From Candidatus Rokuibacteriota bacterium (lineage in GTDB: Bacteria > Methylomirabilota > Methylomirabilia > Rokubacteriales > CSP1-6), in the NCBI GenBank assembly GCA_003220595.1, contig QHSZ01000086.1, positions 1 to 53,797 of the forward strand: a DNA stretch of 53,797 bases. The letters run 5' to 3'. Made by a program: the position numbers and the translations under genes. Shown here piece by piece: positions 38,301-50,871 of this stretch (position 1 is its first letter; the number at the start of each line of letters is the position of its first letter). A model generated the notes under the pieces. The model saw only the letters and a program-made list of their open reading frames with translations. It did no database searches and was not told the DNA's origin.

Positions 38301-38528
38301 GCGACGCCGGAGATCCTGGCGCCCCTCTCGCCCTCGCTCATCTTCCGCGGCCTCGCGCCGGAGACGCTGGCCGACGACCTCACGGGCCTGCTCGAGCGGC
38401 TGACCGACCCCGCGGACGCGGCCCGGCTGCGCGCGGAGTGCCGCCGGCACGCCGAGGCGCACTACGGGTGGGACCGCGCGATCGCCGCCCTCGCCGAGGC
38501 CCTCGAGCGCGTCGCGGGGATGCAGTGA
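35358..38528 (+). CDS. asparagine synthase-like glutamine amidotransferase fused to GT4
   Basis: MCGIAG, HRGPD, FNGEIYN, LSGGIDSS, GGDE, ELRAPF; in-frame C-terminal ILMVSD...GGAE...EGFGLVTVEALACG. Confidence 0.88.
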   Translation: MCGIAGVIGEAPPDLLPAMLDLLRHRGPDDMGVHAEPGVALGMTRLAIIDLVTGRQPMSDADERFWLVFNGEIYNFRELRAELEARGRRFRTQSDTEVILQAYATFGEACVERLRGMFALALWDRARRALFLARDRLGKKPLYYWQHGGLLAFASEPKALLRHPAVSRDVDWAAFHHYLAFGYTPGRSSIYAGMLKLPPAHTATLVDGRLTLSRYWQLPPGPAAVLPASIEDTAATLREQLRDAVRLRLESDVPLGVFLSGGIDSSAVVASMREVTSGRITTVSIGFARAFASYDELPYARLVAERFGTDHHEEVLEPNVAELLPTIVRHFDEPFADSSAVPTFAVAQATARLVKVALSGIGGDETFGGYPRYLGVRASELYARLPRAARRAAGALAQALVRESRTSRNLGGWVRRFAAGAEAPLPERYLRWTRFFGDEELARLATPALGALLTSSVDAAQRSAFETHGHGDPLDGAFRIDLATYLPDDLLVMADRMSMANSLELRAPFCDHRLVEASLAIPPSVKIPGRRLKGLLKTAFADVLPRPVLEHRKQGFMIPLGAWLTSDLRATLEDLLAPSLVAARGLFEPAEVERLRREHAGGARDHADRLFTLMMTELWIREYLDRGGQWSLGGAHARGTRAGRPVVARPRTLRILMVSDVSPARPEGGAERMLREQASRLAALGHRVRVVSRAHADGGQAPLDLAGVHVRHFPMDHRSVAGFVRTSILAARRATSADLAESPADVLHLYQPLAGYGALLSPAARRLPMLYTFHSPAPLEYRARHGMTRRHRGGLAGGFGAAALWLVERACLRRARLIHVLSDFSAGQLETLYRIPPERIVKIPGAVELERFRPAADRAAVRRALGLPEGRPLLLTVRNLERRMGLDLLLRAMARVKARVPEALLLLGGAGSLRGELEALGAALGLDGHVRFLGFIPDRTLPAFYQAADVFVLPTRELEGFGLVTVEALACGTPVLGTRVGATPEILAPLSPSLIFRGLAPETLADDLTGLLERLTDPADAARLRAECRRHAEAHYGWDRAIAALAEALERVAGMQ

Positions 38529-38758
38529 GCGACGCGCGCCTCGCTCGGGCCACCCACGGTGCACGCCGGCCTCGCGGACCCCGCTACAAATTGACCGGCG
38601 CGCGCCTGGTCGAGGAGCGCCACGGGTTTCCCGGGGCGCTCCGAGCGTGGGGGGGTCTGGGGGGCCATGTCGGGGCCCCCCACGTCGACCGATACGGCGC
38701 GCGCCTGGCTCAGGCCACCCACGGTGCACGCCGGCCTCGCGGACCCGGTTACCAGTGA
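38525..38758 (+). repeat. family A repeat copies with nested family B element; forms a 77-aa open frame coupled at both ends
   Basis: A copy 38525-38590, A 5' fragment 38591-38609, B element 38609-38689, A copy 38695-38758; GTGA overlaps at 38525 and 38755. Confidence 0.9.
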
Positions 38759-47168: not shown

Positions 47169-47954
47169 ATGAGCATCCTCGACGACATCGTCCGCGACAA
47201 GCGCCAGGAAATCGCGCGCCGCCGGGCCGCGACCCCGCGCGCCGAGCTCGAGCGCCGGGTCGCGCAGGCCGGGCCCGCCCGCGATTTCGAGGGCGCGCTC
47301 GCAGGAAGGCCCGGGCGCGCGCGCCTGATCGCCGAGGTGAAGAAGGCGTCACCCTCCCGCGGCGTCCTCGCGGGCGACCTCGACCCGCTCGCCCTCGCGC
47401 GGAGCTACGCCGCGGCGGGCGCCCACGCGATCTCGGTCCTCACCGACGAGAAGTACTTCCAGGGGAGCCTCGACCTCCTCGCGCCGATCCGCGCGGCCGT
47501 GCCTCTGCCCCTCCTCCGCAAGGATTTCACGCTCGACGAGTACCAGCTCTGGGAGTCGCGCGCGGCCGGCGCCGACGCGGTGCTGCTGATCGTCGCGATC
47601 CTGGCGCCCGCGGGTCTGCGCGACCTCGTCGCCGCGGCGAAGGGCCTCGGCCTCGCGGCGCTGATCGAGTGCCACACCGCGGGCGAGCTCGACGCGGCGC
47701 TCGGCGCGGGCGCCCGGATCGTCGGCCTCAACAACCGCGACCTCCGCACCTTCGAGACGCGCATCGAGACGACGCTCGAGCTCCTGCCGTTGATCCCGCC
47801 GGGGCCGATCGTCGTCAGCGAGAGCGGGTTCTTCACCGGCGACCAGGTCCGGCGGGTGGTGGACGCGGGCGCCCACGCCGTGCTCGTCGGCGAGGGGCTC
47901 GTCCGCGCCGTCGACGTCGGGGCGAAGCTCCGGGAGCTCACGCTCGATGGTTAG
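47169..47954 (+). CDS. trpC: indole-3-glycerol phosphate synthase
   Basis: IAEVKKASPSRG, SVLTD, LRKDF, NNRDL, SESG. Confidence 0.95.
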   Translation: MSILDDIVRDKRQEIARRRAATPRAELERRVAQAGPARDFEGALAGRPGRARLIAEVKKASPSRGVLAGDLDPLALARSYAAAGAHAISVLTDEKYFQGSLDLLAPIRAAVPLPLLRKDFTLDEYQLWESRAAGADAVLLIVAILAPAGLRDLVAAAKGLGLAALIECHTAGELDAALGAGARIVGLNNRDLRTFETRIETTLELLPLIPPGPIVVSESGFFTGDQVRRVVDAGAHAVLVGEGLVRAVDVGAKLRELTLDG

Positions 47955-48594
47955 GGTCAAGGTCTGCGGGATCACGAACCTCGAGGACGCGAGGGTCGCG
48001 GTCGAGGCGGGCGCCGACGCCCTCGGCTTCATCTTCGTCGAGGGGACGCCGCGGTTCGTCACGCCCGAGCAGGCGGCGCCGATCATCCGCGCCCTGCCGC
48101 CGTTCGTCACGTCCGTCGGCGTCTTCTGGGATCACCCGGCGGGGCACGTGAAGGCCGTCGCCGAGGCGTGCGGGCTCCGCGCGCTGCAGTTCCACGGCGA
48201 CGAGCGGCCGGAGGACCTCGAGGGCTACGCGCTGCCGGTGATCAAGACCCTCAAGCTCGCGCCCTCGGACGCGCTCGGGGGTCGCCCACCGTGGACGCCG
48301 CTCATCGCCGAACGCTACCGGAAGTGCGCGGCGGCCCTCCTGCTCGACAGCGCCGCGCGCTGGAGCGAGGGTGAGCCGCGCCAGCCCATCGAGTGGACGG
48401 CGGCGCGCGACCTGACCGGCCACCGCTGGCGGGTCGTCCTGTCGGCCGGGCTGACGCCGGAAAACGTGGGGCGGGCGGTTGCGACGGCACGGCCGTACGC
48501 CGTGGACGTGAACTCCGGCGTGGAGACGCAGCCGGGACGCAAGGACCCGGACAAGGTCTGGCGCTTCGTCGCCGAAGCCAAGGGCGTGCGATGA
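47947..48594 (+). CDS. trpF: phosphoribosylanthranilate isomerase
   Basis: [36 protein letters not shown]. Confidence 0.92.
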
Positions 48595-48791
48595 GCGACG
48601 CGCCCCTGACTCGGGCCACCCACGGTTCACGCCGGCCTCGTGGACCCCGCTACCAAATGAGCGACGCGCGCCTGTTTCAGGCCACCCACGGTTCGCGCCG
48701 GCCTCGTGGACCCCGCTACCAAATGAGCGACGCGCGCCTGTTTCAGGCCACCCACGGTTCGCGCCGGCCTCGTGGACCCCGCTACCGATGA
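48591..48791 (+). repeat. three tandem 66-bp family A repeats forming a 66-aa ORF coupled to trpF and trpB
   Basis: Units start at 48591, 48657 and 48723; ATGA overlaps at 48591 (trpF stop) and 48788 (trpB start). Confidence 0.93.
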
Positions 48792-50005
48792 AGCGCGCGC
48801 GGCCTCGGCCCGCCGCCCTGCCCGACGCGCAGGGGCACTTCGGCCGGTTCGGCGGCCGCTTCGTGCCCGAGACGCTCATGGCCCCGCTCGTCGAGCTCGA
48901 GCGCGCGTACGCCCGGGCGCGCCGCGACCCCGCGTTCCAGGCGCGCCTCGCCGGGCTCCTCCGGGACTACGCCGGGCGGCCCACCCCGCTCTACTTCGCG
49001 ACGCGCCTCAGCGAGCAGGCCGGCGGCGCCCGGATCTACCTGAAGCGCGAGGACCTCTGTCACACCGGCGCCCACAAGATCAACAACGTCCTCGGCCAGG
49101 CGCTCCTCGCCGAGCGGATGGGCAAGCGGCGGGTGATTGCCGAGACCGGCGCGGGCCAGCACGGCGTCGCGACCGCGACCGCCGCGGCGCTCCTGGGCCT
49201 CGCGTGCGAGGTGTACATGGGCGCGGAGGATATCGAGCGGCAGGCGCTCAACGTCTTCCGGATGCGCCTGCTCGGCGCGCGCGTCGTCCCGGTCGAGTCG
49301 GGGAGCCGCACGCTCAAGGACGCGATCAACGAGGCGCTGCGCGACTGGGTCACGAACGTGCGCACGACCTACTACCTCCTCGGCTCGGCGCTCGGCCCGC
49401 ACCCGTACCCGGTGATGGTCCGCGACTTCCACGCCGTCATCGGCGCGGAGACGCGGCGGCAGGCCCGCCAGGCGCTCGGCCGGCTTCCGGACGCGCTGGT
49501 CGCGTGCGTCGGCGGCGGCTCGAACGCGATCGGGCTCTTCCACCCGTTCATCGGCGACCGCCGGGTCAGGATCATCGGCGTCGAGCCCGGCGGCGAGGGG
49601 CTCGCAACGGGCCGGCACGGCGCCTCGATGACCGCGGGGCGCGTGGGGGTGCTGCACGGCTGCATGAGCTACCTGCTCCAGAGCGACGACGGTCAGATCG
49701 CCACCGCCCACTCGATCTCGGCGGGGCTCGATTACCCGGGCGTCGGGCCCGAGCACGCCTACTACCGCGACGCGGGCCGCTTCGAGTTCGTGGCCGTGAC
49801 GGACGAGGAGGCGCTCGAGGGCTTCGAGGCGCTCACGCGCCTCGAAGGCATCATGCCGGCGCTCGAGTCGGCCCACGCCGTCGCGCACGCGATGCGGCTC
49901 GCCAAGACCCTGCCGCGCGCGAAGGCGATCGTCGTGGGCCTCTCCGGGCGCGGCGACAAGGACGTGCACGTCGTCGCCAAGGCCCTCGGCACGGAGGTCA
50001 AATGA
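48788..50005 (+). CDS. trpB: tryptophan synthase beta subunit
   Basis: [50 protein letters not shown]. Confidence 0.97.
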
Positions 50006-50067
50006 GCGACGCGCGCCTGGCTCAGGCCACCGACGGTGCACGCCGGCCTCGCGGACCCCGCTACAAA
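50002..50067 (+). repeat. family A repeat fused in frame to the 5' end of trpA
   Basis: ATGAGCGAC...CCGCTACAAA encodes [22 protein letters not shown], followed by TTG ACC CGC of TrpA. Confidence 0.92.
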
Positions 50068-50871
50068 TTGACCCGCCTTGGCGAGACCTTCGAGGGCCTC
50101 CGGGCCCGCGGCGAGCGCGCGCTCGTCGCGTACCTGACCGCGGGCGACCCCTCGCTCGCCGACACGCGCCGGCTCGTGCTCGAGGCGGCGCGGCGCGGCG
50201 CCGACGTGGTCGAGCTCGGCGTGCCGTTCTCCGATCCGCTCGCCGACGGGCCCGTCATCCAGCGCGCGGCGATGCGGGCCCTGGACCGCGGGACGACGCT
50301 GCCGCGGGTGCTCGAGACCGTCGCCACGCTCCGGGCGGAGACCAACGTGCCGATCGCGCTGCTCACGTACTACAACCCCGTCCTCGCCTTCGGCCTGAAG
50401 GCCTTCGCCCGCACCGCGGCCGACGCGGGCGTGGACGGTGTGATCGTCGCCGACCTGCCGCCCGAGGAGGCGGACCCCCTCGCGGCGGAAGCAGAGGCGG
50501 CGGGCCTCGACCTCGTCGCCATGGTCGCGCCGACGTCGACGCCCGAGCGCGTGCGCCTCATCGCGCGCCGGAGCCGCGGCTTCATCTACCTCGTCGCGCT
50601 GACCGGCGTGACCGGCGAGCGGCGGGAGGTGCCGCGCGATCTGGCGGCGCAGATCCGCGCGCTCCGGCGGGTCACGCGCATGCCCGTGTGCGTCGGCTTC
50701 GGCATCTCGCGGCCGGAGCACGTCGAGGCCGTGGGGCGGCTGGCGGACGGCGTGATCGTCGGCTCGGCGATCGTGCGCCTCGTCGAGGAGCGGGCCGGGT
50801 CGGCCGGCCTCGTGGAGGCCGTCGGCGACTTCGTCGCGGCGCTGAAGGCGCCGCTCCGTGGGCCGAGGTAG
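50002..50871 (+). CDS. trpA: tryptophan synthase alpha subunit (22-aa repeat-derived extension; alternative start TTG 50068)
   Basis: [43 protein letters not shown]. Confidence 0.95.

Follow-up and report, generated by a model that had tools for sequence, protein, structure and literature searches.

Three repeat units occupy the trpF-trpB junction

The window, by which we mean the whole analysed stretch of 53,797 nucleotides (contig QHSZ01000086.1 of Candidatus Rokuibacteriota bacterium, GenBank assembly GCA_003220595.1), carries the tryptophan genes trpC, trpF, trpB and trpA (Table 1). The 3' end of trpF reads GTG CGA TGA, and the terminal hexamer CGATGA is present twice, at 48589-48594 and again with an offset of 197 nt at 48786-48791, where it contains the ATG that opens trpB at 48788. 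Three units of 66, 66 and 65 nt lie between the two hexamers, and Tandem Repeats Finder reports them as one array (48591-48801, period 66, 3.2 copies, 93% matches, score 357). No difference exists between units 2 and 3 over 64 nt (100% identity), and unit 1 shares 92.4% identity with unit 2. Because unit 3 is one base shorter than the other two, the TGA at 48789-48791 comes into frame, and the final 66 codons of an ORF extending from 48393 to 48791 constitute a frame that stops there and shares one ATGA with the trpF stop and another with the trpB start. The duplicated hexamer and its spacing, the mini-ORF with an ATGA overlap at both ends and the identity of units 2 and 3 as opposed to unit 1 had been put forward in a preliminary description of the locus, and all three were confirmed in the sequence and in the list of ORFs. 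The trpB ATG is preceded by GACCCCGCTACCG, and no purine-rich run was found in the preceding 15 nt.

Table 1. Features of the tryptophan gene region and other copies of the repeat unit in the window
Feature	Position	Strand	Basis or remark
Single copy of the family	38525..38594	+	GTGA 38525-38528 overlaps the stop of a 1138-aa upstream ORF; 3' end TTGA 38591-38594
Single copy of the family	38693..38758	+	3' GTGA 38755-38758, its GTG in frame of a downstream glycosyltransferase-like ORF; 5' side adjoins another repeat motif, no NTGA
trpC (indole-3-glycerol phosphate synthase)	47169..47954	+	ORF; Pfam IGPS, E 1.7e-81; 8-nt overlap with trpF start
trpF (PRA isomerase)	47947..48594	+	ORF; Pfam PRAI, E 2.2e-34
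AAGGG, Shine-Dalgarno-like run in trpF end	48580..48584	+	6 nt before ATG 48591; putative role
5' ATGA (TGA, trpF stop; ATG, mini-ORF start)	48591..48594	+	Sequence, ORF list
Repeat unit 1, 66 nt	48591..48656	+	
Repeat unit 2, 66 nt	48657..48722	+	
Repeat unit 3, 65 nt	48723..48787	+	
Relay mini-ORF, 66 codons and stop	48591..48791	+	No Pfam family matched by the 66-aa product; no Trp codon
3' ATGA (mini-ORF stop overlaps trpB start)	48788..48791	+	Sequence, ORF list
trpB (tryptophan synthase beta)	48788..50005	+	ORF; Pfam PALP, E 3.2e-46
Single copy of the family, trpB-trpA junction	50002..50071	+	ATGA 50002-50005 overlaps trpB stop; 66 nt to TTG 50068
trpA (tryptophan synthase alpha)	50068..50871	+	Pfam Trp_syntA, E 2.8e-88

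The unit belongs to a family dispersed over the genome

The genome from which the window originates (hereafter G000) is a draft of 4.06 Mb in 380 contigs with a GC content of 70.7% and an estimated completeness of 98.5%. Iterated nhmmer searches detected the core of the unit, about 60 nt long, in 122 copies at 93 loci of this genome (72 single, 13 double and 8 triple). Within the window itself, a 40-mer of the core with up to 3 mismatches gave 4 matches as compared to 0 in 100 shuffled sequences. When the 122 copies are aligned, most of them are bounded by NTGA on both sides, and NTGA is present at both ends of 45 loci. Between one NTGA and the next the unit measures 65 nt, and where neighbours are fused in frame 66 nt. 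In arrays of period 65 each unit thus carries its own ORF of 22 codons, linked to the next by ATGA, and in arrays of period 66 the units are fused in frame. The frame of the copy at the trpB-trpA junction of the window runs into trpA, and could either provide a 22-aa N-terminal extension or permit a restart at TTG 50068.

Other short repeats were observed alongside this main family. A third motif, GTCGGGGCCCCCCACGTCGACCGA, lies directly 5' of six main-family copies in place of their 5' NTGA (window 38655-38692 and, given as contig or contig:position in G000, C123, C25:15535, C285:439, C3:1606 and C325:6288). A second repeat family is represented by 40 copies and displays a GC hairpin, CGGGGC-CCCA-GCCCCG, an example being found at 9050-9120 of contig C187 (locus L132, minus strand). 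A subset of about a dozen of its copies starts with TTGATCATAGG and ends with GCCATGA on a gene start, measures 65 nt from NTGA to ATGA (22 codons) and often lies directly 3' of a main-family unit; the remaining copies are without NTGA ends. Finally, four main-family copies (C190:15423, C187:10623, C348:15475 and C87:8712) end in ...CAAGGAG instead of ...CAATGAG, one base away, and in two of the four a Shine-Dalgarno-like AAGGAG is thereby located 7-9 nt before a downstream ATG.

The unit is present in 15 of 41 related genomes, a tally that counts G000 itself and takes in the unpublished genome G010. The same family-level group accounts for 12 positives among 24 genomes, and a sister family for 2 weak matches among 13. 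A search for the exact core pattern, using one genome per species, returned at least 89 stretches, and the 80 of them listed all bear Rokubacteria, Rokuibacteriota or Methylomirabilota titles and come from about 28 MAGs. Among these 80 listed loci of other MAGs we counted 131 copies in 98 clusters, of which 59 share the frame of the downstream gene and 4 do not; 15 lack an NTGA, 4 are opposed to the gene, 10 are not clearly followed by coding sequence and 6 lie near a contig end. The array periods among the same loci are 65 (11 arrays), 66 (19), 67 (2) and 68 (1). In G002, which belongs to the same genus as G000, the trpB-trpA junction carries a diverged copy of the main family at the place corresponding to window 50002-50071. 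This copy is read in a different unit frame, yet it is in frame with trpA, which suggests that an insertion of older date has become an N-terminal extension. The trpB-trpA junction is empty in G007 and G015.

Copies are aligned with the direction and the frame of downstream genes

Gene frames around the 93 loci were called with our own codon-usage scorer, which is not a gene finder; it was trained on 728 long ORFs of G000 and recovers the frames of trpF and trpB. The length of the longest ORF ending on the TGA at the gene start was uninformative, because at a GC content of 70% frames extend a long way upstream without a stop. Repeat and downstream gene have the same orientation at 76 of the 93 loci (Table 2). 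A terminal NTGA is present at 60 of these 76, and at 53 of the 60 its start codon lies in the frame of the gene, which is open, as compared to an expectation of one third (P=1e-18). Two genes are bridged completely at 26 of the 93 loci, the trpF-trpB junction being one of them.

Table 2. Gene context of the 93 loci in G000 and outcome of the relay walk at the 59 loci with a 5' NTGA
Category	Loci	Remark
Downstream: 3' NTGA start in frame, open	47	
Downstream: composite with second repeat, terminal ATGA in frame	6	
Downstream: 3' NTGA out of frame	7	
Downstream: co-oriented gene, no 3' NTGA	16	GGAG/GAGG within 25 nt in 10
Downstream: gene on opposite strand	8	
Downstream: not clearly coding	8	
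Downstream: too short to call	1	
Upstream: 5' TGA is the stop of the upstream gene	25	
Upstream: stop up to 30 nt before the element	21	
Upstream: read-through of the frame to a later NTGA, its stop	10	
Upstream: not clearly coding	23	
Upstream: gene on opposite strand	9	
Upstream: other	5	Too short, 2; read-through ending at another stop, 2; stop farther than 30 nt upstream, 1
Relay walk: chain ends on in-frame gene start	34/59	
Relay walk: in-frame fusion with downstream gene	4/59	
Relay walk: relay to start, no frame call	3/59	
Relay walk: run-on out of frame	7/59	
Relay walk: run-on, no frame call	5/59	
Relay walk: dead end	5/59	
Relay walk: relay to out-of-frame start	1/59	

At the 59 loci with a 5' NTGA, the succession of reading frames was followed by walking from start to stop to the next start (Table 2). 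Four of the seven out-of-frame run-ons (C187:9119, C29, C297 and C309:5062) precede a copy of the second repeat family and were counted as in-frame composites in the analysis of downstream starts; the composite at C187:9119, when translated, gives a 43-codon frame that ends on the ATGA of the gene. Not every copy follows the relay grammar, as out-of-frame, NTGA-less and opposed copies exist. Since the copies of a family share descent, and targeting is inseparable from selection in such a comparison, the P values given here describe a pattern and not a mechanism.

Empty sites, variation in unit number and origin of the array

The main family was found at none of the trpF-trpB junctions of 29 relatives, which include the unpublished genomes G010 and G024. 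As had been anticipated in the preliminary description, alignment of these junctions revealed the empty CGATGA: in the closest relatives the junction reads either gtgcgATGA (G002, G004, G007 and G023) or cggTGA, in other relatives trpF and trpB overlap by GTGA, and more distant ones display gtgggTAA. Out of 80 metagenome contigs encoding a TrpF relative, 68 hold the trpF-trpB junction, and at 66 of the latter it consists of an overlap or a short spacer with no insert. The ancestral stop/start overlap postulated earlier is thus substantiated by both data sets. One of the two remaining metagenome junctions carries an unrelated 52-nt spacer and the other, L186, carries the main family. The flanks of the L186 insert are 98.1% and 97.3% identical to the window, and the insert itself is one 65-nt unit and no more, preceded and followed by CGATGA and showing six differences relative to unit 1.

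The number of units at the trpF-trpB junction therefore varies between close populations, from one in L186 to three in the window, where no contig spans the array. Contigs from four public soil DNA runs of four different studies reach both outer junctions of the window array (48342-48618, and 48757-49000 with 0 differences), stop inside it and in no case span the three units. Of the copy-number and population-variation check proposed at the outset, the variation was thus found in L186, whereas the three-unit count is not spanned by any soil-run contig. In the same four soil metagenomes (runs X1-X4), the summed contig depth over window positions 48588-48780 exceeds that of the flanks 10- to 100-fold, which fits the presence of many family copies in those soil communities, and it is at the units that the public unitig-style contigs are interrupted. 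The only RNA run listed contained a fraction of 0.04 of the sampled words.

Empty sites were also found at other loci. Relatives display bare NTGA overlaps where G000 has units at C300:4045, C300:6499, C187:2147 and C187:9119, and the empty state at C348:961 reads TATAATGAGCC in relatives. At the non-genic locus C348:15475, the empty site of the relatives is without any NTGA, which implies that the element can bring along its 5' ATGA at the least. Three of the empty sites in relatives read GTGA and both ends of the filled site read ATGA, an arrangement predicted neither by simple target-site duplication nor by insertion after the target. In the 45 loci bounded by two NTGAs, the dinucleotide before them agrees between both ends in 12 cases as compared to 6.5 expected by random re-pairing (P 0.011); the two bases after NTGA likewise agree between junctions, and five loci exhibit direct repeats of 9-10 nt. 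The target-site duplication of CGATGA that had been proposed for trpF-trpB consequently stands in part: extra DNA does occupy a former overlap, but the array is one locus of a 122-copy family in which a matching CG before both NTGAs is not general.

The heptamer CTCGTGG occurs in all three units of the window and, by eye, in none of the other 119 copies of G000, nor is it found in L186. This shared private variant indicates that the three units were amplified or homogenised in place. The internal joints of the array, however, read CCAAATGA, as in the family consensus, and not CCGATGA, so that simple slippage of a single CGATGA-flanked unit such as the L186 allele cannot have produced them. Tandem expansion in 66-nt steps, as first envisaged, is accordingly supported by the conserved frame and the shared heptamer, but not in the form of simple slippage.

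These observations also bear on a purely local origin, in which the CGATGA overlap would have been duplicated once and then amplified in place. The hexamer at both ends, the identical units 2 and 3 and the private heptamer are all in line with such an event; it is contradicted by the recurrence of the core at 93 loci and in related genomes, by the consensus joints and by the lack of a general hexamer match between junctions. We find this scenario scarcely credible: family dispersal refutes it as a sole explanation, and in-place amplification remains as a second step.

Some junctions were hit independently by different repeat families

The trpF-trpB junction is occupied by the main family in G000 and by a different, 47-nt GTGA repeat in G001. 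In the latter genome, which is of the same genus, locus L014 is a tandem repeat whose first unit of 47 nt (16 codons) extends from GTGA to GTGA, and the contig ends inside the array. At the trpB-trpA junction of G017 (L027), an unrelated 66-nt repeat is present twice and forms one 44-codon frame from the ATGA of the trpB stop to the ATGA of the trpA start. A further junction, C300:4045, holds two 65-nt main-family units in G000 (C300:4030-4180). Its orthologue in G002 (L134) contains a 29-nt unit followed by three 86-nt units, with ATGA-linked ORFs of 10, 29, 29 and 29 codons, the orthologue in G001 (L135) retains an in-frame remnant of 33 nt, by which the downstream protein gains 11 residues, and in three other genera the orthologous junction is a bare GTGA. 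Some junctions have hence been hit independently by different families in sister genomes. The units of the unrelated families measure 65, 86, 47 and 29 nt, that is 3n+2, and others (about 66 nt) are frame-preserving. That all unit lengths are either 3n+2 or frame-preserving points to a strong translational filter.

DNA structure, peptide coding and transposase content

Several searches were conducted for features of known mobile or regulatory elements. The only inverted repeats of at least 6 nt in the unit, terminal or internal, were self-palindromic hexamers. Folding of the units on both strands was no better than that of shuffled sequences (z +0.57, +0.11, -0.01 and +1.20), the whole array gave z -0.44, and RNAalifold analysis of 86 distinct units on both strands yielded no usable consensus structure (-3.2 and -6.5 kcal/mol). 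No known RNA family was detected by Rfam in positions 48300-50300 at E up to 1, the two matches obtained being below threshold and attributable to chance (mir-6790, 25.7 bits for a cutoff of 78; ASdes, 18.8 bits for a cutoff of 40). A search for the Y1 transposase domain PF01797 gave 0 matches in the 98.5% complete draft of G000, the same search being positive in 6 of 14 control genomes. Variation among the copies is 0.111, 0.081 and 0.101 at codon positions 1, 2 and 3, respectively, and this equal distribution indicates that the DNA is conserved and not the peptide. A gene encoding a conserved peptide was ruled out on these grounds. A trp attenuator was ruled out as well, considering that the mini-ORF is without a Trp codon and that the family precedes many unrelated genes.

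The same data are pertinent to the possibility that the family is a selfish element of the REP/BIME or MITE type, mobilised by a Y1 (RAYT/IS200-like) or DDE transposase with a TGA-containing target, in which case frame and coupling would be incidental and without effect on expression. Its interspersed distribution in high copy number, its tandem clusters and its patchy occurrence among genera, in 12 of the 24 same-family genomes, would be typical of such an element. In addition, the reverse complement of the 3' end of the unit begins with GTAG, as REPs do, and the second repeat family of G000 does possess a GC hairpin. The main family nevertheless has neither inverted repeats nor a consensus fold, no Y1 transposase was found in G000, and it is hard to conceive without selection on translation how unrelated families would all come to have 3n+2 units and how 53 of 60 terminal starts would be in frame. 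We therefore judge this explanation unlikely.

A translational relay as the probable design of the family

Taken together, we consider it probable from these comparisons of sequence that the trpF-trpB array is one locus of an interspersed, variable-number family of translational-relay repeats, the units of which would have moved between junctions and would couple the translation of neighbouring genes. Each unit opens on an NTGA, in which a start codon overlaps a stop, continues with some 22 codons free of stops and closes at the next NTGA. Upon insertion, the ribosome-binding site of the downstream gene would be shifted 65n nt away, and termination-reinitiation at the -4 overlap would still deliver ribosomes to the start codon of this gene. 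At the locus studied here, the trpF stop, the 66-codon relay frame and the trpB start form one gap-free chain. In relatives with an empty site, the AAGGG run in the end of trpF lies 6 nt before the trpB start. In the window the same run now precedes the start of the mini-ORF, and ribosomes either ending trpF or loading at the old ribosome-binding site could translate the 66-codon frame, stop at the TGA within ATGA and reinitiate at the trpB ATG that overlaps it. The actual coupling that would keep trpB expressed is in this way deduced from the arrangement of the overlaps, and it would render the insertion nearly neutral. The same explanation has been offered for MIRUs, both in a 2025 review of translational coupling (PMC12548453) and by Delihas 2011 (PMC3184786).

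A regulatory role could be envisaged instead, with the Arg/Pro-rich peptide or the number of units acting as a leader or dial that tunes how many ribosomes reach trpB or the other downstream genes. The difference between one and three units in populations that are about 98% identical is what a dial might look like, 53 loci have copies immediately before start codons, and at the 23 loci where the upstream sequence is non-coding a unit would act as a leader ORF. We regard this role as very unlikely, given that there is no conservation at the peptide level, that the mini-ORF contains no Trp codons and hence is no trp attenuator, and that the downstream genes are unrelated to one another.

Under the relay reading, we infer that the observed distribution reflects insertion at NTGA junctions, or with microhomology to them, combined with selection against copies that break the frame. 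Insertion may thus need microhomology to the NTGA joint. A more speculative proposal is a dedicated start-codon-homing system, by which several short cassettes of Rokubacteria that are unrelated in sequence (65, 86, 47 and about 66 nt, all 3n+2 or frame-preserving) would integrate at NTGA overlaps through a shared route, one possibility being microhomology- or recombinase-mediated integration from a circular or tandem unit donor with the joint ...CAATGA(G/C)C. Such a system would explain the locus-specific direct repeats, which measure 4 to 10 nt, the existence of hot-spot junctions and the absence of inverted repeats, and although we hold it to be rather doubtful, this lineage would, if it were true, be the place to learn how MIRU-type elements move.

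Discussion

The closest counterparts of the family described here are the mycobacterial MIRUs (Supply et al. 1997), which are described as units of 40-100 bp present at tens of intergenic operon sites, often in tandem and in variable number (PMC3184786, PMC12548453). According to the same two sources, the small ORF of a MIRU is co-oriented with the flanking genes and its ends overlap the stop and the start of the neighbours by 4 nt, filled sites differ from empty ones by tetranucleotide direct repeats, and these interspersed relay repeats of mycobacteria insert at start codons and are rendered harmless by translational coupling. Each of these traits has its equivalent in G000: a short dispersed unit (65/66 nt, 93 loci), a co-oriented ORF with -4 overlaps (53 of 60 in frame, 26 of 93 full bridges), tandem arrays of one to three units that vary in number (one in L186 against three in the window, which no contig spans), and empty sites with short direct repeats (an empty NTGA at 5 loci, NTGA at both ends of 45). 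Differences exist too. MIRUs have imperfect terminal and internal inverted repeats (PMC3184786), whereas the Rokubacteria family is without them. This family also belongs to another phylum, Methylomirabilota/Rokubacteria according to record titles, reaches a higher copy number (122 copies at 93 loci in 4 Mb) and coexists with several families that are unrelated in sequence and share the same grammar. It may be said to work like a MIRU and is best filed outside the mycobacterial family, the likeness resting on described features and not on MIRU sequence.

Other classes of short repeats are less similar. REP and BIME elements resemble the family in being short, GC-rich, intergenic, high-copy and clustered; in contrast to REP/BIME with their RAYTs, the Rokubacteria family lacks a palindromic hairpin, the search for a Y1 transposase in G000 was negative, and both the orientation and the frame of its copies strictly follow the downstream start. 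Like MITEs, it looks non-autonomous, is short and interspersed and has short direct repeats at its ends, but it is devoid of terminal inverted repeats, is much shorter than most MITEs and has its junctions fixed on NTGA. Our literature searches found no report of such repeats in Rokubacteria or Methylomirabilota, and apart from the coupling review, searches for MIRU-like elements yielded only papers on mycobacteria or VNTRs.

The same relay design would thus be at work in an uncultured soil phylum, with a different sequence, more copies and several 3n+2 families extending from NTGA to NTGA. This supports the view that translational coupling generally filters the DNA that invades operons, or generally serves as its target. 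The 93 loci of G000 and the hundreds across MAGs, together with the empty/filled site pairs and the hot spots, constitute a large natural data set on element movement. In practical terms, the units are a source of spurious small ORFs, of genes extended at their N or C terminus and of interrupted contigs in MAGs. Populations of Rokubacteria could be studied with the units as variable-number markers.
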